From an uncultured bacterium (GTDB lineage Bacteria; Omnitrophota; Omnitrophia; Omnitrophales; Aquincolibacteriaceae), in assembly GCA_964581425.1 (NCBI GenBank), contig CAZOOM010000001.1, forward strand, positions 5,183-69,182: a stretch of 64,000 bases of DNA. The letters run 5' to 3'. Of this stretch, positions 2,062-52,484 are shown in pieces (within the stretch, counting starts at the first letter, position 1; each line of letters opens with the position of its first letter). The notes below the pieces were generated by a model. That model was not told the DNA's origin. It saw only the letters and a list, made by a program, of their open reading frames with translations, and searched no databases. Made by a program: the position numbers and the translations under genes.

Positions 2062-5000
2062 TTGCACTACAAGCTCAGTAGCATCAAACTTCTTTGCTGG
2101 TTTCGATCTCTCCTTTTTTTCTTAATGTTGATGAATTCTTTTGCGTGGGGACAGGTATTTGCTGCCCAAAGTTCAGAAGTTAAATATTATAAAATAGGTA
2201 TCCTTGCTAACAGAGGCAAAGAAGAGTGTTTAAGCCGATGGAAAAGCACGGTAGACGTCCTGAATCAAAAAATCCCCGGAATGCACTTTGCCATCGTTCC
2301 GTTAGGTTTTGATGAAGTGGATAATGCGGTAGAAGGGAAGCAAGTCGATTTTGCTCTTACCAATGCTTTTTATCTTCCCAAATTTGAAAAATTTCACAAG
2401 GTTCAATCTTTAGTAACCCTTTCTACAACAGGCCCTGGCCCATTCGAGGGTATGTTAGGCGGTGTCATCTTCACTCGTGCCAACCGCCAGGACATTAACG
2501 AAATTCACGATTTGAAGGGGAAAAGTTTTGCAGCAACAGATTTTCAATCTGTGGGATGGATCGCTTCTTTAAGAGAACTTAGGCTTGCTGGGCTTCACGA
2601 GGGCCATGATTTGAAGGCCCTCGTTAAACTTGGAGAAAATAACCGTGTGGTTGAAGCCGTTCAAAAAGGTGAGGTGGATGCGGCCACGATTCGGACAGGA
2701 ATATTTGAACAGCTTGTCCAAGAAGGCAAGATTCGTATTGAGGATTTCAAGATTTTGCATCCACGAGAAAACCTTCCGTTTATTTGTTCCACACGCCTTT
2801 ATCCTGAATGGGTATGGATGCGTCTTGAACATGTTCCCATGTCAGAAGGAAATGAGCTGGCGAGAGTTTTGCTTTCTATTCCCAAAGAAAGCGAGGCAGC
2901 TCGCACTGGAAAATATCAGAGTTGGATGTTACCTCTTAATTCTGAATCCATTCACGATTGTTTAAAAGAGCTGCGTATTTCTCCATACGAAAGTTTTGGG
3001 ATCATCCAATTTCAAGAAGTTTTTCAAGCTTACTGGCCTTGGATGCTTGTCTTTGTCCTTGTGGTAACGGTTCTTATTATTATTTTATTTATTCTTTCCT
3101 TTGCCGGACGGGATGTTGAAGCGGCCCTGCAGCGTGAACGATCACCCTTTGCAATTTGGATCATTTTCTTTGTAATTGCAGGAGGTATTATTGCAAGCGT
3201 CAGATGGTACTATGTCGATCAGAAAAATTCAATTCGTGAAAATCACTTTGCGCTTCTTAATGCTTTATCTAATAACAGTCAACAACAGATTACGGAATGG
3301 TTTCACGAAATGAATACTCATTTAACTTCGATTACCCAAGATCCCATGGTTCGGAAGGCAACGCGTGATCTTGTGACGAGCTCATCGAAACTTGCAATGG
3401 ATCAAAATTTACCAGACTATTTTAAGGAATTTAACCGTCGTGAAAATTTTGATAATGCATCAGTGTTGGATATCCACGGTAAACTTCTTTGGACACTTGA
3501 TTTGAAGAAGTTTAATTTCATTCAATTGGCAGATTCCACCTCCGTACAAAGCCTGTTACAAAAGCAAAGCATAACGATTGTAGGCCCCGATGTATCGAAG
3601 CTGGCTCAAGGCGCTTTTATTGATGTTGCCATGCCTCTTTTAGATTCAGCTCTCCCGAATGTTCCGTATGGAATTTTAGTTTTGACAAATAATCTTGAAA
3701 AAAAGATTTATCCGCTACTTCGTGAGTGGCCTATGCCCACACATTCCGGCGAAATGATGCTAGCGAGGAGAGAGGGGGACAAAGTTGTTTTTATAAGTCC
3801 TTTAAGGTTTTCTAAAAGAGGAGAGGCTGTGAGGACTCTTTCAATGAATGAAACCAATCATCCTGCGGTGATGGCGGCTCGTGGCATGGAAGGAAACGTT
3901 GAAGGGGTTGACTATCGCAATGTGAAAGTACTTGCAGTGATCAAAAAAATATCAGAAACACCATGGTATTTAATCGCAAAAATGGATGAGAACGAAGTGT
4001 ATGAAGGATTGCAGGGTCGGCACGGTCTCATGATTGGCATGACCACAGGTTCGATTTTGCTTGTAGCTGCATTTCTCGCGCTTTTTATGAATCTGCGTGA
4101 TAAGCGTTTTTACAAAAAACTTTATCAGATGGAAAAAGACCTGAGCCGGAGAGATATTCAATTTTATTCTTTTGCGGAATCAAGTTTAGATCTTATTTAC
4201 CGGTTAAATCGTCAGAGGGTTGTGATCTATATTTCTCCGGCAATTCGAAAGATGCTGGGTTATAACGAAAGCCAAATCTTAAATAGGCGATTTTCAGATC
4301 TTGTTCATAGGGATTATGTTCTTACTATTGAGCGTGCTTATGAGGAGATTCTTAAAGGCAAACCAATCCGCAATTTAGAGATTAAAATCCTTAAAAAGAA
4401 CGGGGAATTCATTGAGGGGGAAGTCAATGCCAGCCCTATTTTTGAAGAAGATCAGGTGGTCCAAATTCAAGGTGTGATCCGAGATATTTCTGAGCGAAAA
4501 CATAGGGAAGAGGAGCTGAGGCAAAGCGAAGAAAAGTTCAAACTGCTAGCGGAGGGTCTTCAGGATGTTGTCATGCGTATTTCCGTGGGAGGGAAAATCG
4601 AATATTGCAGCCCTGCGGTCAAGGAATTTGGAGGGTATGATTCCCAAGAAGAAAAGGGAGAGTTTATTGGGAAATATTTTGCAAATCCTTTAGAGCTCGT
4701 TAAAACACTCAATTTAATGAAAGAGCTGACTATCAGCCGAAAACCTTCTACTATTTCGTTTTTTTATCGTTCTAAAAACACGCCTCCCTTTATGGTTGAA
4801 GTGTCTGGAAGACCCCTCATTAAAAACAATCAAGTGGTTTCATTTATGTGTGTGATGCGGGACATCAGTCAAAGGGTAAAAGCTGAAATGGAAATGAGAA
4901 AACGAGAAGCTACACTGAACACCATTACATCTGCTGCACAAGATGCGATTGTCATGATGGATGATCAGGGCTTGATCACTTTTTGGAATCCGGCGGCTGA

Positions 5001-19899: not shown

Positions 19900-22800
19900 T
19901 TACTCATGTGCTCCAACCAGCTTTCTGGAAGGGGTTGATGGCTTCTCTGTTTTGACAGATGCAGCTTCAGGAACTTTCTTAAGCGGACTTTTTGAAATAT
20001 CACGTTTCACTTTTGTGATCTTTAAATTTCCGCGAGGTTTATCCAAGTCACTCGGAAGGACGAGCTGATTTCGGATTAACGTTGCGCCTGCAACCCCTTC
20101 AAAAGCCTGTCGCAGCATCCAGCCAGCGGCGCCGGTGTAACCATTCCAAATCATGCGGCCAAGTTCAAATGTAGTAAGAAAGTCAGCCGGCTGTTTGTTC
20201 GGTTGTCCGCCGTAAATTTCAATTTCCTGAGGTGTGACGTGAGCAATCGGAGAAACTTTTTGCCAGAGCCGATAAGCGGTTGCTCGGTACTCTTCAGCTT
20301 TTGCGTGATCCTTGCGCGCTTCAAATTCTTCAGCGAGTAATCTTGCGGCACGCACGAGCCACTGAACACCGTGACAGTACATTCCATTTTCACGGACACC
20401 TTCAGGATATTTGCTGCTCCGTCCGAGATAGGGTTTGCTGTCTTCGCGAAGCGCGGGCCATCCGAGAAGGATACAACTGCCGCGTTCGAGAACTTGAAGT
20501 GCGGTATTGAACACCGTAACCGCGCGTTCGAAATTCATGCCGGCCATGACAGCCCATGCCGCGGTCAAGGCATCGATTTCCCAAATGCCGCTGTCTTTGA
20601 CACCGATTTCCGTACCATCATCATGAAAGGCACGAAGATAGCGGTCGCCACGCCAAGTGGTTTCCAGACACTCTTTAAGTGCTTCCAGTTTTTGAACATA
20701 AAATGCTTTTTTCTGTGCGCCTTCTTTACGTTCAATAATAGGAACCATTTCTTTTAGGATGTAATAGAGGAAAAATCCGAGCCACACACTTTCACCGTGA
20801 CCTTCGCCTCCGATTTCATCGAGTCCGTCATTCCAGTCTCCGGTCCCCATTAACGGAAGACCGTGTTTGCCGGTGCGTTTTTTGATCACAAGATCAATCG
20901 AACGCATGCAATGTTTGTAAAGCGTATCACCGCGCGTGGTCCGATGATAAAGATGCCCCCAGCCGCCTTTATTTTTCGGAAGCTGAGCAAACGGAAACTC
21001 CGACATGACGTAAGATGCCATCTCATCCAGAATCGTGTCATCACCCGTCATGCGAATATATTCCACAGCAGCCCAAGCGAGCCAGAGCGGATTATCCGAA
21101 GCGTGTGAGCGGCAAGAAAATGCCGTGCGTCCGTCCACGAGCGTGAAGAACCAGTGAAACACATCGCCTTCTAAGAACTGCTGAGAGGCATGCAGAAGGA
21201 TTTGCTTCCGTGCCAATGCTGGATCCATCCAAATCAGATTGATCGTGTCCTGCAACTGATCGCGGAAACCGTAAGCGCCGCTGGTTTGATAAAAACCTTT
21301 GCGTGCCCAGATGCGTTCGGCGAGTGCCTGATATTTGAGCCAGTTTTGATAGCGGTCAAACTCAGGTTGATTGGTTTCCACTTTGGCGGATTCCATAAGC
21401 GCGAGCCACCACTGGCGCGTGCTCTCAAGACTCTTTTTCGCATTTTCCAGATTTTTATATTTTTGAACAATGCGGGCAGCATCTTTTTCAGAATCCGTTT
21501 GACCAAGTACCACAGCCAATGTGAATTCCTGATGCGACGGAATTTCAACCGAACCAAGGAAAGCAGCAATTTGTCCGGGATCCTTCGATTCTTTTTCATC
21601 CGGATGTCCCATTTCAACTAAGTAAGGGTGCGAGGGTCCGCGTCCGTCTCCAAAAAATCGTCCGCGTTTAGTTTCGACGAGTTCCGGATTCACAGACATT
21701 GAGGCAAAGGCCCAGCCATTTCTAAAAATATTTCTCGGGTTTGAGAAATAAAGTGCGTTCAAAGCCTTGTCATGTTTCGTGACAAGCGGGCCTGAACGTT
21801 CCGGCTGAAAGGAAAGAACCATCTGAAAATAAGGAGCCACACGAAGCCTGCGTGTTTGGTTTCCTGTATTTTTGATGCGCAAAAGGTAAATGCCAGTAGG
21901 TTCATCAGTAGGAACAAAAACCGTAAGCTCTGTGGACAAGGTTCCTTTAGACATGCGGAACACTGCTGTCCCGTCCACGCTGAAATCACAATCATGTTTG
22001 GCACTCACATCATTAATGGGGTGATACGTGGGAGAAAACCATTCCTTCTGATCTTGGTCATAAAGATAAATGGCCTCAGTAGGAATTTCTTTCGTGACCG
22101 TATCCGGCCAATCTGGCGTGAGACGATTTTGCTGTGAGTTTCCGTTACACGAAGTGTGAAGTCCGCGATTCGTGACCATGACTGAATGCGTGGGGTTTGA
22201 CATCCCGTGGTCAAAAGGCCGAGGAGTAAACGGAGTCAGCACGCGCATGGTATTGCCTTTATCCAGAAACTCAAAATAAGGTTGCGGAGTTTTGGGATAA
22301 ACTTCTCCGTGTCCGATTAAGAGGCTGCGTTTTTTGCCAGCCGCTGGCACGGATTTAGGAGCCAGAGGTTTTAAGAATTTTTGGATCAAATCAAGGGCAA
22401 TGCCTTTGTTTTTGGAGTAACCTATGACGAGTTTCATGCTCACAGATGCTTGAGCGCCTACCGGGGCATTGACCATCAAGCTTCCAATAGGGTCAAAGGT
22501 TGGGCAAGCGGGCGTGTCCTTTGCAGGCAGAAAATCCAAAGTCTCAAGCGCTCGAGGAGTCCAGACACTTTTCCCACGTCCGATGAAATCAACTCGGCCT
22601 GTGAGGAATCCTTCCGGAGCGAGATCCGAGGCCATGAATCCCATGGACTTCGTGCTCTTTTGCCAAGAAATAATGGCATTCGCTCCGCTCACATATTCCA
22701 TTTCAGGATAAAGACGAGCGTACTGAGTATGGAATCGGTCGTGCATCCAACCGTTTAAAACCCACTCAAGATACGAAACGACTTTGAGCTGCCGCGGTTT

Positions 22801-25800
22801 TTCTGTCAAATTCTCTACCGTGATATTCCAAAGCTCAACAGGGCTGTCCTGATCAGGCAGTCGGATTTCGATCGTGGATTTGACACCGTTGTGAGTTTGG
22901 GTGAGCTTTAAACTGTCTTCAACTTTTTCAACGCTCGCATTAGGAAAATATTCACGAGGACAGTTTCCCATTATAGGCCAGGATACAATTTTCCCTTTGG
23001 CCGCATCAGTCGTGTCGACGATGAAGAGAATGCGTCCCGTGGGATCCATAAAATCGTAGGATCGGCGGCTGATGTCGCACTCTTTTCCTGTGAGTTCACT
23101 GTAAACTTCTGCATTGGCTTTTGCGGTCACTTTATACTCCCGATTTGAGAGTTCGAAGGACGCAAGGGCCTTTTTGGCTGCGCGCTCGCGTGAAGCACGA
23201 ATCAAAAATGCGAAAAAGGAGCAAACCAAAATCGCTCCTGCCATTAGGAAAAACATTTGTCCTGCAGAGAGCGATTGAAGAAAAGCGAGCAGCCCTTTTC
23301 CTCGGTTTGCATTTTGCATGGCTTCCGAAGCACTCCAAACATATTCCCATTCAGCGCCGCGCGGGATGTAAAAAGGAATCAGAAGAGGCGCCCAAGTGGT
23401 AAAGCGTTTGACCCCTTCAGGGATGTAGCGCTGAGCCGCGGCAGGTCCAATAAATCGTGACAGTTTTTCGTCCAATCGATCCATGCCGATGAAGCTCAAA
23501 TTCACAAGCGTGGCCACGCGAAGTCCCATGTGGTCCATCCAAATCAGGATGCGGAGAAAATCAAAAGCCATCATCCAAAGGAAAACCTGAAGACTCCAGT
23601 TGTGGAAATCTGTCGGAGAAGAGGTTGTGTTATGCCAGATGGCAAACAGGGTGCGGATGGCTCCGTCCTGGTTGTACCAAGTCGGCTCGGGCATGACGCG
23701 TAAAAAGGTGGCAATAATCGGTGACATCCAAAGTCCCCAACGAAGGACGTAAATCAAGTTTTCGATTAACGAAGCAAATCCCGCTTTGGAAAAGAAAAAT
23801 TTGATTGGAGTCGTATCTTTTTCAAAAATGGATTGAAGAAAAACTTTGTTGATGGCAAAGAGCCAGGCTGCGATCGACCAGTTGATGACTCCGGCAAGAG
23901 ATTCGAGGAAAATCAATTTGACTCCGCCTGAGTAATGACCCAGATCAATGCGTCCCCATTTGTTTAAGAGGGGAATGGTGTTGTAGGCGATCGGATCAAA
24001 TCCTGAGCTTGTGTAGAGCTTGAATTTTTCTACAATCACAGGCACTTGAGCGGCATCAAGGTAAAACGCGACTGCACTTCCTACGAAAATCCCAAAAATG
24101 GAATCAGTGAAATAAAGTTTCCAAGTTTGAATTTTCCCTTGATGGCGAAGGCCGTAAAAAATATCCCGAAGAAGACTGACGCCTCCGGAGGCCAGAAGTC
24201 CCATCATCAAACCGAAAACAATTCGGTCCGGCATGGCTTTGGTGAACATTCCTTGAGAAAACATCACGGCAAATCCGTAGCCTGCGATCGCTCCGCGCAA
24301 ATACAACCAGCCATTTTGATAGCTGTAAGCTGTGCGTTCAAAAAAAGGAAGGCTGCCGTCAAAGGTTTCGATAATGGTTTTCAGGAATGGGAAAATCAAA
24401 GCACCGGCCAAAATCCCAATAAAGATGGGCGAGCTTGTCATGGCGCTGTGGACAAACGATAATTTGAGTGTGATTTGAAGCGCGTAAAGAATGGCCATCA
24501 AAATCGAGCTATAGGCAAATCCTTTGCGGGCACCGGTATCGATATTTTTGAAAATATTTTCTGGAGTTGGGGCCGCATTTTTTCCAGCGTCCAAGAAAAT
24601 ACCAGTTAAAAGATAAACTTCCCCCCAAAGACCTGCGAAAGAAAGACCGGTCGCGATGACTGCGATCACAGCTTGCAACAGAATCGGCAGGGAAGCCACG
24701 CCAGCTGATGATGCGAGTCCAGCAATCATCGGAGCTGCGGTGGCACCCAGAGAAACCCCAAGCAAAATCCAGTGGGCTTTTGCGGTTTTGAGGATTCTTC
24801 CTTTGGTCAGCATTCCAAAACTGTTCGTAACGATCTCATTAAAAAGAAAAAGTACAAGAGCGCGGCCCAGAAACTCCGCCATGGCAGGCCATGCCTTGGT
24901 AAGAGTCAGAGTAAGGCCCAATCCGAGTTTTTGAAGCAGGATGGGGTTTTCGAGCAAGAGCAGCCATCCAAAAAGGAATGGGGTCAGGACAATCATAAAA
25001 GCAGGTGTCTTTTTGAGATGTTTTCCGGAAGAGCACATGCTATTAGCATTAAAAATTTGATAAATCAAAAAGGCGATGCACGCGGTCAGCTTGTTGATTT
25101 GGAAAAGCTCGCTCCATCCTGCAGGCGCTTGTAAAAGATCAAGCCGGCTTGAAGCTACTGCCAGCATTCCGGTGAGAAAAATATTTTGGAACACTTCACC
25201 GCGACTGAGATGTTTTCCCGTCAAACGGATTTTTAGAAGTTCAGCAATTAATCCTCCTGCTAAAGCGACCGCAAGAAAGGTCCAACTGAAACCAACATCT
25301 AAAATACCAGAAGTGCCGAGTGAGTAAATCCGAATCGCAAGTGCGAGAATAAAAATCGTCATGGTTCCGGTAAAAAAATCTCTGCCCGAAAAGCCTTTGG
25401 GAGATTCTTTGGGCTTTTCCGGGGTCGCGGATTTGCTGGATTTAAGAACTAAGCCAGCGAACCACGAGAAAATAAGAGCGGTCAGGAGCACAAGTCCTAA
25501 TTTAAGAAATGTGGCATGACGCTCCACAAAAGTAGTTTGATTAAAATCAAAATCAAAGAAAAAAGAACCCATTACAGGCTTGATCTCTTCGGGCTTAGCA
25601 TTCATGGGCGGAACAATCATGGGGCTTACAACAAAAACAAATTCACGAAGTTCGCCAATCTTATTCCATCGGATAAATTCGCGCAGAGAATTCCACCCTG
25701 TTTTGAGCTGCAAAATGGGAATGATTTGGGTATCCAGGCTTCCCTTGACTTCAATTTTAACGGCTGCTTGGCGGGCATTTTGGTTTTCAGGAATTTTGAC

Positions 25801-46913: not shown

Positions 46914-47082
46914 TCTAACGGCCGCCGTCTTTGCGCTTCGAAAAACATTCTTTGCAATACACCGGACGATCGCCGCGCGGTTTAAAAGGAACTTCGCATT
47001 CTTTTTTACAATCAGAACAATTGGCTTTGTGCATTTCTCTTGGACCGCCAAAACTACTTCCACCACCTCGATCAAAACTCAT
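46914..47082 (-). CDS. Unannotated 55-aa Gly/Arg-rich zinc-ribbon protein. It is below the ORF-track size cutoff.
   Basis: Translation MSFDRGGGSSFGGPREMHKANCSDCKKECEVPFKPRGDRPVYCKECFSKRKDGGR. It has a CxxC-x17-CxxC zinc ribbon and a strong RBS, AAGGAGAGAGT, immediately upstream of the ATG. The ends are good to about 1 nt. Confidence 0.5.
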
Positions 47083-48027: not shown

Positions 48028-48888
48028 CTAAGGTGTGCGCCTATGGCTATCCATTTCTAAATTTAACAAGCGCTTTTTGCGATCAGGATTCCACCTGTAA
48101 CCGCCAACACCGCCTGACTTTGGAACAATTCGGTGACAGGGGATGACGATCGCAATAGGATTGGTTGCGCAAGCACGTGCCACAGCCCTTGCAGCCGAAG
48201 GATTACCCAGGGCCTTTGCAGCTTCTGAGTAATGATAGGTTTTGCCAGACGGGATGGTGCGAAGCCAATCCCAAACTTTTTTTTGAAATGCAGTGGCTTG
48301 TATGTCATAAGGCAGAAGAGGCCATGGCCGATGACCTTTAAGGTAATCGACCAGCGCTTGGACCCAGCGCTGTAACGACACGCTCTTTGGTAAAAACTTC
48401 GCTCCTTGAAATTCTTTCTTAAGTTCACGCTCTAATTTTTTTTTCTTTTCACCCAGCCTAACACAACAAATTCCTTGATCCGTAGCCGCTACCAGTAAAT
48501 AGCCCAGCGGGGATTGCGTGATGACATAAAGAATGGTCGCGCCTTGGCCCTTATTTTGATAATGCTTGGGAGACATTCCCAAATAGCGGTGTGCGAATTC
48601 ATACAAGCGGCTGCTGGATCCAAAACCGGCGTCGTAAAGTGCTCGGCTTACGGAAGCACCTTTTTTTAGAAGAAGGCGCAGACGTTTAAAACGCACCGCA
48701 TCTGCGTAATTCTTAGGAGAGATTCCGAGAAATTTGGAAAATATTTTTTGGAAATAAGCAGCACTGAACTTGCAATGAGCAGCTACCTCTGAGAGACTGG
48801 GTATTTGGTCAGAGGTTTCAATGAATTCACAAGCAGAAACGAGTTTGTTTTGAAGAATATCCTTGGAGTTAAGAACCATGGCTTGCAT
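48028..48888 (-). CDS. Ada-like fusion of an AraC-type HTH domain and methylated-DNA-protein-cysteine S-methyltransferase (Ogt/MGMT).
   Basis: HTH_AraC segment AAYFQKIFSKFLGISPKNYADAVRFKRL. C-terminal MGMT active site IPCHRIV (PCHR) and the wing GGYRWN. Confidence 0.8.
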   Translation of the reverse strand: MQAMVLNSKDILQNKLVSACEFIETSDQIPSLSEVAAHCKFSAAYFQKIFSKFLGISPKNYADAVRFKRLRLLLKKGASVSRALYDAGFGSSSRLYEFAHRYLGMSPKHYQNKGQGATILYVITQSPLGYLLVAATDQGICCVRLGEKKKKLERELKKEFQGAKFLPKSVSLQRWVQALVDYLKGHRPWPLLPYDIQATAFQKKVWDWLRTIPSGKTYHYSEAAKALGNPSAARAVARACATNPIAIVIPCHRIVPKSGGVGGYRWNPDRKKRLLNLEMDSHRRTP

Positions 48889-48948: not shown

Positions 48949-49851
48949 TTAGGCTTTGTTTTTTAAATTCGAAGGGAGTTTGATCGATTTGGCAAGTCCG
49001 AACCAAGACAGGAATTTAATCACTCCGTAAGTGATATCAATTTCCCACCATTTCAGCCCGTGCCTGGCGGAGTATTGAAACGCGTGGTGATTATTGTGCC
49101 ATCCTTCTCCGTAAGTCATGGCAGCAACCCACCATAAATTTCTGGAATTATCTTTGGTTGGATGACTCCGGTAGCCCCAGACATGAGCCGCTGAATTGAC
49201 AAACCACGTTGCGTGATAGGCCAGCACGGTGCGGACAAAAACACCCCAAACCACAAAAGGCCACCCGCCCCACAAATAAAGAGCAATGCTGAGAAAAAGG
49301 GTCCACCAAATATGAGTTTTTTCTAGAAACACGTGGCCTTTGTCTGCCGCCAAGTCGGGAGCGAATCGAGCTAATCCTTCCGGAGTGTTAATCCTCTCAT
49401 TGTGAAAAAAAATCCAGCCCATGTGTCCCCAGAAAAAACTTTTGAGAGGGGAATGAGGGTCACCTTCCTGGTCTGATTTTAAATGATGAAGACGATGGCC
49501 TGCGACCCAAGTGAGGGGGCCTGATTGGCATGCCAAGCAGGCCATCAAGGTAAAAAAATACTCAAGGGGTTTTGGAGTTTTAAAACTGCGGTGAGTCAGC
49601 AGCCGGTGATAACCAAGCGTGATTCCAAGACAGGCTGTTGCAAAATAGAGGACGACTCCAACCAGTAAAGCACTCCAGCTGAAACAAAAAAATCCAGCCA
49701 CAGCTGCCAAATGAATGGCCACGATAAAAGAAGCAACAGGCCAATCAACTTTTCGAGGTTTTGAGGAGGCGGGTTCTAAGGAGAGTTGGTCAACTTCTCC
49801 AGGGCCCATTGGGGCGGCGGTTTCCTCATTCATATCTGTCAGTGAATCCAA
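48949..49851 (-). CDS. Acyl-CoA delta-9-type membrane fatty-acid desaturase. This is the second copy in the window.
   Basis: His boxes HRLLTH, HRLHHLKSD and HNNHHAF. It has four TM helices and is 300 aa. Confidence 0.85.
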   Translation of the reverse strand: MDSLTDMNEETAAPMGPGEVDQLSLEPASSKPRKVDWPVASFIVAIHLAAVAGFFCFSWSALLVGVVLYFATACLGITLGYHRLLTHRSFKTPKPLEYFFTLMACLACQSGPLTWVAGHRLHHLKSDQEGDPHSPLKSFFWGHMGWIFFHNERINTPEGLARFAPDLAADKGHVFLEKTHIWWTLFLSIALYLWGGWPFVVWGVFVRTVLAYHATWFVNSAAHVWGYRSHPTKDNSRNLWWVAAMTYGEGWHNNHHAFQYSARHGLKWWEIDITYGVIKFLSWFGLAKSIKLPSNLKNKA

Positions 49852-50126
49852 GATGAAATGACCTTTAGTAATGCACTTAAGTGATTGAAATGACGTGTCA
49901 CATCATCCCATGAGAATTTGGAGGGGATAGGCTAACTTTAAACTGCCGGATTGGCAACCAAAAAAAGAAGAACTGCCAGATACTTTAAATTTTCTAATCG
50001 AGAGCATCCTCGTAAATTGACACTTTTCTAGAATGGCTGGCGTCTAAAGAGCAGAAGCTGCTCAGTGTCTATCTTCTTAAGAATACTCGCGCGGCTAGCA
50101 GTGACAGATCAGAAAAGGAGATTGTT

Positions 50127-50630
50127 ATGACAAAGAAAACCACAATGACAGGATTCGCAGCTCTTATTTTTACTTTAACCGTTGCTCTTGGGAGTGCTTA
50201 TGCCCAGGAATGTATGAAAGGATATGGACACGGCGGAGGACGCGGAATGTCCGGGCAATTTTTTAAGAAGGCTCATTGGATTATGAAAAACCAAAATACC
50301 TTGGGGCTTTCCGAGGAAAAAATAGCGGCAATCAAAAGTTTGATGCTGGATACAAAAAAAGAAGCTGTGAAACAAGAATCAGATATCAAGGTTCTGTCTT
50401 TGGATCTCAAAAACCAGCTTTCAAAAAATGTGATTGATGTTGCAGTAACGAATAACTTAATCGACCAAAAATACGAACTTGAAAAAGCCAAAGCAAAGAA
50501 TTCAATTAAGGCCTTGGCTAAACTAAAAACTCTGATGACTCAGGATGAGTGGAATAAATTGAGTTCTCTTAAAAAAGAATCGCACCAGCATCGTCAGCAC
50601 GGAGAGTTTCAGGATAAAGATCAGGATTAA
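50127..50630 (+). CDS. Periplasmic LTXXQ-motif protein (Spy/CpxP/ZraP-like chaperone family).
   Basis: Signal peptide MTKKTTMTGFAALIFTLTVALGSAYA. LTQDEWNKL is the LTXXQ motif. The protein is helical and Lys/Glu-rich, and 167 aa long. Confidence 0.6.
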   Translation: MTKKTTMTGFAALIFTLTVALGSAYAQECMKGYGHGGGRGMSGQFFKKAHWIMKNQNTLGLSEEKIAAIKSLMLDTKKEAVKQESDIKVLSLDLKNQLSKNVIDVAVTNNLIDQKYELEKAKAKNSIKALAKLKTLMTQDEWNKLSSLKKESHQHRQHGEFQDKDQD

Positions 50631-50672
50631 ATGCCAGATTTGAAAAACGACTCTAAACAACAGGAGAATTTT

Positions 50673-51266
50673 ATGTCAAAGAAATATCCAGCCCTACTTT
50701 TAGCGATCTTGATGATCTTTACTTTAGTTCAACCGCCTGCGGCGTTAGCCGATCGAGGTCATGGCCATGGTTATGGACATGGTTACGGTTATGGAGGAGG
50801 AAGAGGTCTCGCCATTGCCTCGCTTGCCGTTGGAAGTGCGGCGCTACTTTATAGTGCAGGACTTTTTTATCGATCAACACCCGCCGGTTATGTGGTGGTC
50901 CAGCCGGCGATGGCTCCTGCTGGCTACAGTGTTACGTATGTGAACGGGATGCCGTATTATTATCCTTATCCCGTAGTGGCGCCTACAACTTATGTGGCAG
51001 CAGCTCCTGTGGTACAAACGGTTCAGCCTGTGCAATATCAATATGCTCAGCCAGCACAGGTCCAAGCACCTGCCCCTGCGCCTGCTCAGGTGGCGGCACC
51101 AGCACCATCTTCAGAACCTTTTGAGATTCGTTTGCCTAATGGGAACGGAAGTTACACTTCGGTCACTTTAAGAAAAACCGCCAATGGATTTTTGGGTCCG
51201 CAAGGTGAGTTTTATGCGGATCATCCAAGTGAAGATGAACTTCGAAAACGCTACCTGAACGCCTAA
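50673..51266 (+). CDS. Secreted protein with a GHGYGHGYGYGGGRG repeat, a Pro/Ala/Val/Gln-rich linker and a conserved ~48-aa C-terminal domain I do not recognise.
   Basis: Signal peptide MSKKYPALLLAILMIFTLVQPPAALA. The C-terminal block is FEIRLPNGNGSYTSVTLRKTANGFLGPQGEFYADHPSEDELRKRYLNA. Start chosen at the Met at 50673. The track ORF begins at 50631. Confidence 0.6.
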   Translation: MSKKYPALLLAILMIFTLVQPPAALADRGHGHGYGHGYGYGGGRGLAIASLAVGSAALLYSAGLFYRSTPAGYVVVQPAMAPAGYSVTYVNGMPYYYPYPVVAPTTYVAAAPVVQTVQPVQYQYAQPAQVQAPAPAPAQVAAPAPSSEPFEIRLPNGNGSYTSVTLRKTANGFLGPQGEFYADHPSEDELRKRYLNA

Positions 51267-51296
51267 AACTAATTTCTAAGAGATGAGGAAAATTAA

Positions 51297-51716
51297 ATGA
51301 AAACAAAAATCATGGCCTTGATGATGATTCTCGTTCTAGGTTGGGTAGGGCAGGCATCTGCAGAATCTGCGATTGATATTCCTTACTTCACCAAAGAAAC
51401 CGTGAAGATTACAGAAAATATCATTCTGATGCCTTTTCGGTTGCTCCGGGATATTTTTGATCCGGAGCCGGTCAAACCTCTGGTTTTGGTTCCGCCTCCC
51501 GTGATGCAGGCAGCGCCTGTGGTCCAAGCAGCTGCACCTGCACCCGTGCCTCAGGCTGATCCGGATGTGGTTGAAGTTCAAATTGCAAAAGGCAACGGAA
51601 GTATGATCGTGGTTCCTCTTCGTAAAACAGAAAAGGGCTACATGGGTCCTCAAGGAGAATTTTACGCTCACTATCCATCCCAGGATGTTTTGAAGGAAAA
51701 GTATCTGAAGGATTAA
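51297..51716 (+). CDS. Secreted paralog of the preceding gene. It shares the same C-terminal domain.
   Basis: Signal peptide MKTKIMALMMILVLGWVGQASA. A Pro/Ala/Val-rich linker follows. The C-terminal block VEVQIAKGNGSMIVVPLRKTEKGYMGPQGEFYAHYPSQDVLKEKYLKD aligns to the upstream gene. Confidence 0.6.
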   Translation: MKTKIMALMMILVLGWVGQASAESAIDIPYFTKETVKITENIILMPFRLLRDIFDPEPVKPLVLVPPPVMQAAPVVQAAAPAPVPQADPDVVEVQIAKGNGSMIVVPLRKTEKGYMGPQGEFYAHYPSQDVLKEKYLKD

Positions 51717-51784: not shown

Positions 51785-52012
51785 TTAGAAACCTAATTTC
51801 TTTTTCATGGCCTCGCCTGTTTTGGCAGCGCAAGCAGCCGCGCGATCCGCGGTTCTGGCAGCAAGGACTTTGTCTTTCTCAACACCTTGTTTGCCGATGG
51901 TTGCAATCGAATCACCCAGCTTGGTGAGAGCATTTTCCTTGCAAGGATCTCCGCAGCCAGCGAGTGTCATAGAAAGTAATCCGAAAACTAAAAGCCATTG
52001 TAATTTCTTCAT
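51785..52012 (-). CDS. Small lipoprotein (75 aa).
   Basis: Signal peptide with the lipobox LLSMTLAGC. It is Cys-rich: CGDPC...CAAK. Confidence 0.45.
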   Translation of the reverse strand: MKKLQWLLVFGLLSMTLAGCGDPCKENALTKLGDSIATIGKQGVEKDKVLAARTADRAAACAAKTGEAMKKKLGF

Positions 52013-52103: not shown

Positions 52104-52484
52104 TTATTTTTGAACGCCCCACTTAACGGTTCCTCGGCACGCGATCAGGAGAAACACAAAACAATAAAGAACCGCAAGTTCACCTTTGTTGATGGCCGGG
52201 AAGAAATTGGATCCCAATTGGAACTTCCAGTGAAACTGGAAATAAGCAACGGCCATTTGCCCGCTTGAAAGAAAAGCGGCAAGCCGTGTTTGAAAGCCAA
52301 ACATCACTGCAAGTCCGCAAATAAGCTCGATAAGTCCTCCGATCCAAATTTGAGAGCCGACGGCTGGCGTATGATCGGTCAGCAGACCAAAGATTTTCTG
52401 AAATCCGTGGAATGAAAACATAAATCCCGTCATGATTCGCATCAGTGCATACGCATGATTTGAAAACTTGTCCAAAAATTTCAT
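52104..52484 (-). CDS. DoxX-family membrane protein.
   Basis: YALMRIMTGFMFSFHGFQKIFG fits the DoxX N-terminal pattern. It has four TM helices. Confidence 0.75.
   Translation of the reverse strand: MKFLDKFSNHAYALMRIMTGFMFSFHGFQKIFGLLTDHTPAVGSQIWIGGLIELICGLAVMFGFQTRLAAFLSSGQMAVAYFQFHWKFQLGSNFFPAINKGELAVLYCFVFLLIACRGTVKWGVQK

Follow-up and report, generated by a model that had tools for sequence, protein, structure and literature searches.

What do three small, apparently exported proteins encoded side by side in a bacterium of the Omnitrophota do for the cell envelope, and what switches their genes on? In Proteobacteria, much is understood of ECF sigma regulons and of the Spy/CpxP/ZraP chaperones; for Omnitrophota and the other uncultivated PVC or FCB lineages, envelope stress is, to our knowledge, almost unexplored. 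The window analysed here, a stretch of 64,000 nucleotides of an Omnitrophota contig, contains the genes, which we call A, B and C, in the following arrangement.

50127-50630, + strand: open reading frame of gene A, 167 aa
50673-51266, + strand: gene B, 197 aa (the longest open reading frame, 50631-51266, has 211 aa)
51297-51716, + strand: gene C, 139 aa
51727-51763, no strand assigned: bidirectional intrinsic terminator, a 17-bp GC-containing hairpin with A and T runs on either side, found by a terminator scan

The three genes are co-oriented with intergenic gaps of 0 and 30 nt between the open reading frames, a ribosome-binding site precedes each of them, and one terminator follows gene C. 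Gene B probably starts with the ATG at 50673, which is preceded by GGAG and is also the start in the public gene call (protein P0003). The terminator closes both the A-B-C genes and the convergent lipoprotein/DoxX genes, and its hairpin accounts for all of the matches, each sub-threshold, that were returned by an Rfam scan. Bounded by the promoter at 50019-50047 (described below) and by this terminator, A-B-C is a three-gene operon. The products are secreted, as the first-pass annotation had stated of B and C, in that A, B and C each begin with a signal peptide, read by eye from the sequence, consisting of a basic n-region, a hydrophobic core and an AxA site. Putative cleavage sites, read in the same way, lie between AYA and QE, ALA and DR, and ASA and ES in the three proteins, and a periplasmic location would be expected for all of them.

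The link between B and C lies in their C-termini. BLASTP of B against C gives one significant segment, gapless, in which 25 of 46 residues are identical (54%) and 35 of 46 positive (E 4e-17; B aa 165-210, C aa 93-138). Outside this segment, no part of B aligns with C. The C-terminal similarity noticed in the first-pass annotation is thus reproduced. Because it does not extend to the remainder, B and C have one domain in common, and the term "paralogs" used there does not hold for the whole proteins. The window's two copies of this block were located by HMM.

51117-51260, + strand: block copy in B (match to B aa 163-210, 211-aa numbering)
51564-51710, + strand: block copy in C (match to C aa 90-138)

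The block is a unit of about 48 residues with the consensus IPNGNGSYTxVxLxKTxKGFLGPQGEFYxDHPTxxQLKxRY, an invariant core G..G..GPQGE.Y...P and a conserved aromatic-x-basic tail. Nine columns are invariant across 37 diverse block sequences and all nine are present in both window copies, while the same alignment contains no conserved Cys or His. A block profile, searched against 1.84 billion proteins, retrieves 1068 cluster representatives with E <= 1e-3, of which 692 have E <= 1e-10. One to six copies occur in tandem per protein, the block stands at the very C-terminus of 96% of the 251 proteins considered, and it is fused to DUF6515, Gly-zipper_Omp/Rick_17kDa_Anti or WXXGXW modules. Several block genes are present per genome; the family is often found in Omnitrophota that are uncultivated and in bacteria related to them, and its carriers are known only from metagenome-assembled or single-cell genomes. 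The block is modelled as a beta-beta-beta-alpha unit, that is, a three-stranded sheet and one helix, with pLDDT values of 87-94 (about 90). No model in Pfam-A or NCBIfam spans it in scans of A, B, C, multi-repeat relatives and neighbours, which gave only faint sub-threshold matches to DUF1687, PEGA and DUF6888. The only match of the block profile in the PDB, to nitrile hydratase alpha, was dismissed as an 11-residue chance match (E 0.16), and a Foldseek search of the full B model against the PDB (best E 2.1) yielded no fold relative pointing to a function. Hence the block, initially reported as unrecognised, corresponds to no known domain found in Pfam-A, NCBIfam or PDB sequence searches and, judged by its conservation, is a real, undescribed and portable module of envelope proteins. 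The label "effector" that these proteins had been given was a guess, to which neither a conserved Cys or His nor a functional fold relative lends substance; most likely, the block binds or anchors to an envelope component.

Upstream of the block, gene B encodes, in this order, a signal peptide, a Gly/His/Tyr segment, a degenerate DUF6515-like beta region and a Pro/Ala/Val/Gln linker.

50757-50801, + strand: low-complexity GHGHGYGHGYGYGGG segment at the mature N-terminus of B, read from the translation

The repeat GHGHGYGHGYGYGGG is present where it had been described, and a DNA tandem repeat of 12 nt underlies part of it. Among 192 members of the block family, the first 30 mature residues, defined by a crude signal-peptide call, contain on average 5.8 Gly, 2.9 His and 2.8 Trp+Tyr. 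The termini of ZraP bind divalent metal ions, and by analogy the Gly/His/aromatic segments, which are also present on LTXXQ partners, probably do the same; for the GHGYG segment of B, the suggestion comes from its composition. One correction to the first-pass annotation concerns the middle part of B. Most of the 108 homologs of B have a precomputed match to PF20125 (DUF6515); scanned homologs, including P0004, P0006, P0038, P0067 and P0074, match DUF6515 at 1e-9 to 3e-18 (HMM about 36-142), and in six of seven scanned homologs of the DUF6515+block type the match runs from about aa 44 to 144 and stops short of the block. Since these homologs match Pfam DUF6515, the middle of B appears to belong to an annotated though uncharacterised family, with the block outside the match. 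The window's B itself (P0003) gives no match to the DUF6515 model even at E <= 10, and its membership would follow from 45-60% identity to proteins that do match; in its homologs the match covers the Tyr-rich beta region, and the window's B is too degenerate to be matched. In the AlphaFold2 model of B, strands occupy residues 49-98 (pLDDT 75-84), residues 106-141 are disordered and the block spans residues 150-197 (pLDDT 92-94); six strands are modelled in the DUF6515-like region. The hydrophobic stretch LAIASLAVGSAALLYSAGLFY of B was considered as a transmembrane helix. This reading was rejected, since the stretch lines up with the first beta repeat in DUF6515 homologs and the model builds strands there. 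We know of no function for DUF6515, and in the literature searched the name occurs only in two papers that seem unrelated from their titles and abstracts.

Gene C encodes a signal peptide, a conserved N-terminal segment (IDIPYFxKETxxIxENIxLxPFRLxRDIFDP), a Pro/Ala linker and the C-terminal block. The homolog P0002 is 51% identical to C over the full length, and searches with the block also brought up sixteen relatives of the C type, about 142-153 aa in length. The order B then C recurs in the related loci L002-L007, L012, L008 and L009. Tandems of the window's B+C type are confined to a small subclade, and a few other loci contain two block genes of other architectures.

The gene A product is a secreted, predicted helical protein of about 140 mature residues with the mature N-terminus GYGHGGGRG and a His-rich C-terminus, HQHRQH; these ends resemble what we take to be the Gly/His termini of ZraP. 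It had been named an LTXXQ protein, a label that scans of gene A alone do not return: there is no Pfam match at E <= 1, so that LTXXQ (PF07813) and Metal_resist (PF13801) go unmatched, and no relevant NCBIfam match. A word-indexed search with the single sequence found no homologs among 5.8 billion proteins, nor any in the PDB. The assignment was recovered through relatives. Gene A is 34% identical (E 1e-21) to a neighbour protein in L005, and hhalign of the four-sequence sub-profile of the gene A type (A3) against the canonical LTXXQ neighbours (A4) gives a probability of 98.5% and E 2.4e-15 over 106 columns. The family profile (A2) reaches Spy (3o39, E 3.4e-11), ZraP (3lay, E 2.1e-5) and CpxP (3itf, E 2e-3) in the PDB, whereas sub-profile A3 by itself does not reach PDB Spy. 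Of the 27 homologous neighbour proteins scanned, 22 have an LTXXQ match and 21 a Metal_resist match at E <= 0.01, the best Metal_resist match having E 3.9e-18. By this profile homology, gene A is a remote and divergent member of the Spy/CpxP/ZraP (LTXXQ) superfamily with a putative chaperone role. It shares with Spy, CpxP and ZraP secretion, a helical make-up and, as proposed here, membership of an envelope-stress regulon. It differs in its missing Pfam match and in that both LTXXQ motifs look degenerate, reading LSEEK and MTQDE where the consensus of its relatives is LNLTxEQ and ILTPEQ. A further difference is that gene A is apparently driven by an ECF sigma factor, whereas Spy, CpxP and ZraP are under the control of the two-component systems CpxAR, BaeSR or ZraSR.

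The evidence for such control comes from upstream of gene A. A sigma-70 promoter scan of the region gave nothing above chance.

50019-50047, + strand: predicted ECF sigma-type promoter, GACACTTTT-N13-CGTCTAA (-35 and -10 elements); gene A has its start codon 80 nt downstream

The conserved motif in related loci is GGAACTTTT-N13-TGTCTAA, and the clade of the window uses GACACTTTT-N13-CGTCTAA. The clade motif has one exact match in the 64 kb window and none in 100 shuffles. From 58 distinct sites in other loci, the consensus GnAACTTTT-N13-TGTCTAA was obtained, and a PWM built from these sites scores the window site at 26.0 bits, compared with 7.2 for the next site in the window and 18.1 for the best of 50 shuffles. 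The regular expression [AC]AC-N17/18-GTCTAA has 74 matches when both strands of 1.8 Mb of related loci are counted, and 70 of these fall on the gene strand. In 42 of 79 GTDB loci, the motif precedes the called start of a block gene by at most 300 nt or lies just within it, and additional loci have a motif with one mismatch or a motif before an LTXXQ gene that itself precedes the block gene. It is found before block genes in L008, L010, L013, L014, L015 and L016. Across related loci, it precedes block, LTXXQ and ECF sigma genes, and its position before the sigma gene looks autoregulatory. The promoter is therefore conserved and linked to clusters of ECF sigma, anti-sigma and LTXXQ genes; its use by a sigma factor is predicted.

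In at least 13 loci, the gene order is block gene, ECF sigma factor, zf-HC2 anti-sigma factor and LTXXQ protein, and the Pfam domains of the sigma/anti-sigma pairs were confirmed where scanned (L013, L015, L028 and L066). The nearest relatives, L013 and L015, carry B, an A-like gene, sigma, anti-sigma and a membrane-anchored LTXXQ protein. The first-pass annotation had asked whether block genes are always paired with an LTXXQ gene; the pairing is frequent and not universal, an LTXXQ gene being present on the same strand within 2 kb in 26 of 80 loci. His/Gly-rich tails are also seen on the LTXXQ neighbours in L089 and L090. ECF281-type clusters are relatives of CnrYXH. The context described for ECF281 consists of an ECF sigma factor, a zf-HC2 anti-sigma factor at +1 and a heavy-metal-resistance protein at +2, and the authors of the ECF classification tie it to heavy-metal stress (Casas-Pastor et al. 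2021, PMC7826278). The same gene order and domain content are found in, for example, L015, L013, L028, L032 and L066, a likeness to ECF281 that rests on gene context. Unlike the related loci, the main text of that classification, as far as consulted, describes neither a block gene at -1 nor scattered block genes with the same promoter (PMC7826278). The window differs further in containing target genes and no regulator: there is no ECF sigma or anti-sigma gene within its 64 kb, which is why the regulator is assumed to be encoded elsewhere in the genome.

We consider it rather probable that the A-B-C operon belongs to the regulon of an RpoE/CnrH-like ECF sigma factor encoded elsewhere in this genome and serves to export stress proteins. 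Envelope or metal stress, the presumed inducing signal, would make a membrane-spanning zinc-finger anti-sigma factor let go of the sigma factor; the freed sigma factor would transcribe the operon, and the three proteins would be exported to the periplasm. There, A would act as a Spy/ZraP-like helical chaperone. B would combine its Gly/His/Tyr segment, DUF6515-like beta domain and proline-rich spacer with the beta-beta-beta-alpha domain of about 48 residues, and C would present its conserved N-terminal segment on a similar spacer and the same C-terminal domain. An envelope- or metal-stress module, as first suspected, is thus strengthened at the regulatory level, by the conserved ECF-type promoter and by the ECF sigma, zf-HC2 and LTXXQ/Metal_resist neighbours in relatives. 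GAACTT-N17-TCTAA is what we take to be the RpoE/AlgU-type consensus, and the operon resembles the RpoE/AlgU regulon in its promoter (presumed consensus GAACTT-N16/17-TCTxA) and in its outputs, which in that regulon are periplasmic folding and protection factors. It differs from RpoE/AlgU of Proteobacteria in occurring in other phyla, in a ZAS-type anti-sigma factor in place of RseA and in outputs dominated by an uncharacterised domain family. Several observations count against this reading: the window has no sigma or anti-sigma gene, about a third to a half of the block genes in other genomes have no recognisable motif, the clade's -35 element GACAC differs from GGAAC, loci of the L002 type have a histidine kinase and a response regulator immediately upstream, and the window's B does not reach the DUF6515 model.

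Other explanations have to be weighed against this regulon. Composition or chance might have produced the block similarity, or the open reading frames might not be real genes; the low complexity of the Pro/Ala/Val/Gln linkers and the lack of close homologs of gene A among 5.8 billion proteins could raise this suspicion. The block itself is not of low complexity, and the alignment of B with C, the nine invariant columns in 37 diverse sequences and the 692 representatives at E <= 1e-10 refute this reading, which retains a negligible probability; the confident structure model and the presence of ribosome-binding sites, signal peptides, a conserved promoter and a terminator likewise speak against it. 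A more serious alternative, though on balance unlikely, is that B and C are mainly periplasmic metal buffers in a Ni/Co/Zn/Cu resistance regulon with a ZraP/CnrX-like partner, the block merely oligomerising or tethering them. Mature N-termini rich in His, Gly, Tyr and Trp are indeed common, with >=3 His in the first 30 residues in 58% of the family, the LTXXQ partners match Metal_resist and PDB ZraP, ArsR and rhodanese genes adjoin the L008 cluster, and the heavy-metal link of the ECF281 context made by the classification authors points the same way. Yet gene C and many other family members have no His-rich segment, the block lacks conserved metal ligands, no efflux pump or metal transporter adjoins the operon in the window, and the "heavy-metal" label of PF13801 is largely annotation by association.

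Block proteins could also be parts of the signalling pathway and not its outputs, either as periplasmic, RseB- or CnrX-like anti-sigma partners or by offering a degron-like C-terminal signal to a site-1 protease; DegS reads the C-termini of outer-membrane proteins. In at least 13 loci the block gene immediately precedes the sigma gene, which would fit such a role, as would the almost invariably terminal position of the block with its conserved aromatic-x-basic end. We nevertheless regard it as improbable, since block genes carry their own copy of the promoter and occur several to a genome, a sigma gene is missing within 6 kb in roughly three of every four loci, and the two to six internal tandem copies in some proteins would be needless for a terminal signal.

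Returning to the sigma-controlled export of stress proteins, we tentatively raise the possibility, itself open to considerable doubt, that the GPQGEFY domain is a new kind of output module for envelope stress. An ECF regulon shared by Omnitrophota, Planctomycetota, Lentisphaerota/Verrucomicrobiota, Fibrobacterota and Elusimicrobiota would then have this domain, in multiple copies, as its main output, and the domain would bind a specific envelope component such as peptidoglycan, a lipid or an outer-membrane protein. No new principle of regulation is involved. The block family, with about a thousand clusters, merits a database entry, and the promoter motif can be used to map the regulon across hundreds of metagenome-assembled genomes. 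The operon also provides a concrete hypothesis for what these organisms export under stress, and if the GPQGEFY domain is such an output module, it would represent a protective function without counterpart in the stress regulons of model organisms.

Genes A, B and C, on the same strand, form an operon with a promoter motif common to ECF/anti-sigma/LTXXQ clusters, and encode a Spy-like protein and two secreted proteins with an undescribed C-terminal domain of ~48 aa (the block, with a GPQGEFY core).

Features of the operon (window coordinates)
50019-50047: predicted ECF-type promoter, exact nearest-clade motif, 80 nt upstream of A
50127-50630 (+): gene A, ORF, 167 aa
50631-51266 (+): gene B, longest ORF; probable start ATG at 50673, preceded by GGAG (197 aa)
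51297-51716 (+): gene C, ORF, 139 aa
51727-51763: 17-bp hairpin with A and T runs on both sides, downstream of C

The probable B start is also that of the public gene call. Gaps of 0 and 30 nt separate the genes, and a Shine-Dalgarno sequence precedes every one of them. Read by eye, all three proteins have a predicted signal peptide, made up of a basic n-region, hydrophobic core and AxA site. The hairpin, a predicted terminator, is common to the operon end and two convergent genes, encoding a 75-aa lipoprotein-like protein (51785-52012, −) and a DoxX membrane protein (52104-52484, −); in the related locus L008, a DoxX gene also lies near block genes, adjoining genes for an LTXXQ and a zf-HC2 protein. 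Upstream of gene A, a membrane fatty-acid desaturase gene (48949-49851, −) points away from it, with 275 nt of intergenic DNA between the two, and an Ada-like fusion of an AraC HTH and an O6-methylguanine methyltransferase is encoded at 48028-48888 (−). At 46915-47082 (−), a 55-aa ORF contains two CxxC pairs (CSDCKKEC ... YCKEC) and resembles a small zinc-ribbon protein, and the GC content of 20001-24000 is 0.48-0.49, higher than in the flanks (~0.42-0.43).

B and C had been described in the first-pass annotation as tandem paralogs with a shared C-terminal domain. BLASTP aligned B and C significantly over a single stretch, residues 165-210 of B and 93-138 of C (54% identity, 76% positives, gap-free, E 4e-17), which bears out the domain; the rest of the two proteins does not align, and hence they have a domain in common but are not paralogs throughout. 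The domain had also been called unrecognised, in agreement with the lack of Pfam-A and NCBIfam matches in B and C; Pfam models likewise left the block uncovered in multi-copy proteins, and its profile gave only an 11-residue chance match among PDB sequences. The reported His/Tyr/Gly repeat is present in B as the run GHGHGYGHGYGYGGG at 50757-50801, which a 12-nt repeat in the DNA accounts for in part.

When 37 diverse blocks are aligned, nine columns are invariant (G, G, G-P-Q-G-E, Y and P), with neither Cys nor His among the conserved residues. The resulting profile was searched against 15 billion proteins clustered at 50% identity, each cluster by one representative, and matched 1068 representatives at E ≤ 1e-3, of which 692 reach E ≤ 1e-10. 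Some proteins contain as many as five or six tandem copies (e.g. P0111 and P0112), and the last copy ends ≤5 residues from the C-terminus in 96% of proteins (n=251 retrieved). The block is also fused to DUF6515, to glycine-zipper outer-membrane-lipoprotein domains and to WXXGXW repeats. Fusions to Gly-zipper_Omp or Rick_17kDa_Anti are found in L034 (5677-6138), L069 (5563-6150), L070 (5269-6150) and L040 (1484-2392), and in protein P0129 the block is fused to WXXGXW repeats; modules of both kinds are characteristic of lipoproteins of the outer membrane or periplasm. AlphaFold2 gives a confident model of the block, three strands and one helix, with a pLDDT of 92-94 within full-length B and a mean of 86.9 for the block on its own. 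The block is thus a real, modular and undescribed domain.

A word-indexed protein search returned one relative for C and 108 for B, all of them from metagenomes or genomes assembled from these; a few are named, and these are Omnitrophota and Lentisphaerae. The majority of B-type relatives carry DUF6515, a named but uncharacterised family, which in those scanned covers the Tyr-rich region of the first half (about aa 30-140) and stops before the block. Scanning one genome per GTDB species gave 192 block occurrences, the best 80 of which were retrieved. Among these 80, Omnitrophota are the majority, the others being Planctomycetales, Lentisphaerae/Victivallales, Verrucomicrobia, Fibrobacterota/Chitinispirillaceae and Elusimicrobia, and several genomes contain multiple copies.

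Gene A by itself matched no entry of Pfam, NCBIfam or the PDB, and the word-indexed protein search returned no relative. A shares 34% identity (E 1e-21) with the protein adjoining the B-C pair in L002-L007, and an iterative search over the ORFs of all retrieved loci linked it to 37 neighbour proteins, in most of which LNLTxEQ and ILTPEQ motifs are clear. Within this set, Pfam LTXXQ matches 22/27 and Metal_resist 21/27, and the joint profile matches Spy (E 3.4e-11), ZraP (2e-5) and CpxP (2e-3) in the PDB. To guard against circularity, a profile of the four closest sequences was compared with one of 16 canonical LTXXQ proteins (hhalign 98.5%, E 2.4e-15, 106 columns). Based on the matches of its relatives and this comparison, A belongs, as judged from sequence, to the Spy/CpxP/ZraP superfamily, within which it is divergent and its motifs are degenerate (LSEEK and MTQDE). 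Its earlier description as an LTXXQ protein therefore stands by profile, but not by a Pfam or NCBIfam match of A alone.

Constant pairing of block genes with LTXXQ genes, which had been proposed as a check, does not hold, although pairing is frequent: in 26/80 GTDB loci an LTXXQ-like gene lies ≤2 kb from the block gene and on its strand. In 11 of these it directly adjoins the block gene, and in 13 more it lies 1.0-1.3 kb downstream, with genes for an ECF sigma factor and for an anti-sigma factor that spans the membrane and has a zf-HC2 domain in between (Pfam-confirmed in the pairs scanned). In L013 and L015, the nearest relatives of the window operon, the gene order is B, A-like, sigma, anti-sigma and membrane-anchored LTXXQ. 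The order of sigma, anti-sigma (+1) and LTXXQ protein (+2) matches that published for the CnrH-related group ECF281, in which a zinc-finger anti-sigma factor is found at +1 and a heavy-metal-resistance protein at +2 (PMC7826278). In L002-L007, from an Omnitrophota lineage, a PAS histidine kinase and a response regulator (3056-4972) lie directly 5' of the B-C-A genes, the promoter has one mismatch (GGAACTTT...TGTCGAA), and the two-component system may be a second control layer. The LTXXQ proteins adjoining block genes in L089 (1449-2060) and L090 (4945-5622) have long His/Gly/Tyr-rich N- and C-terminal tails (e.g. GGHCRHHHDYRGYQYGGGYGNYHKHGG) of the same composition as the B N-terminus.

Reading the upstream regions of related loci revealed a conserved motif, GGAACTTTT-N13-TGTCTAA. 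A simple regular expression for it matches 74 times in 1.8 Mb across the two strands; the gene strand has 70 of these matches, and nearly all lie directly upstream of block, sigma or LTXXQ genes. In 42/79 loci the motif lies up to 300 nt ahead of the called block-gene start or slightly within it, a count that depends on crude ORF starts; further loci have a one-mismatch motif, or the motif ahead of an LTXXQ gene upstream of the block gene. The clade nearest the window (L008, L010, L013, L014, L015 and L016) has the form GACACTTTT-N13/14-CGTCTAA, whose single match in the 64 kb is at 50019-50047, with 0/100 shuffles matching. With a PWM trained on foreign sites only, this site scores 26.0 bits (runner-up, 7.2; shuffle maximum, 18.1). 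The GAACTT-N17-TCTAA element corresponds to the RpoE/AlgU-type consensus. No sigma gene was found in the window, and hence the regulator is assumed to be encoded elsewhere in the genome. The predicted A 5' leader (50055-50126) starts with a perfect 6-bp hairpin, GAGCAG-AAG-CTGCTC, which matched no Rfam family. In L028 (5558-5586, 6214-6242 and 7267-7295) and L032 (5457-5485, 6255-6283 and 7343-7371), one ECF-type promoter copy precedes each of the block, sigma and LTXXQ genes, and these clusters therefore look like three units, each under its own promoter, instead of a single operon.

That B and C are themselves signalling components is argued against by block genes with promoter copies of their own, by the several block genes per genome, by the absence of an adjoining sigma gene for most of them and by the internal repetition of the block in some proteins. 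Rather than signalling, we propose a role as exported products: an ECF281-like sigma factor would transcribe A-B-C under envelope or metal stress, and the proteins would be located in the periplasm. The Gly/His/Tyr segment of B is a putative metal-binding site; A and the L089/L090 LTXXQ proteins have similar segments at their ends, and such segments are known from ZraP. The block, at the tip of a proline-rich spacer, may have a binding or tethering role.

The regulatory logic of an ECF sigma factor, a ZAS anti-sigma factor and a CnrX/Spy-like protein is already known. Searches of Pfam, NCBIfam, the PDB and the literature found neither the C-terminal domain, nor its standing as the gene most often behind this promoter, nor a C-type protein. 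The finding is of value for a domain family that can be defined and for a regulon motif in phyla about which little is known, rather than for a new mechanism.
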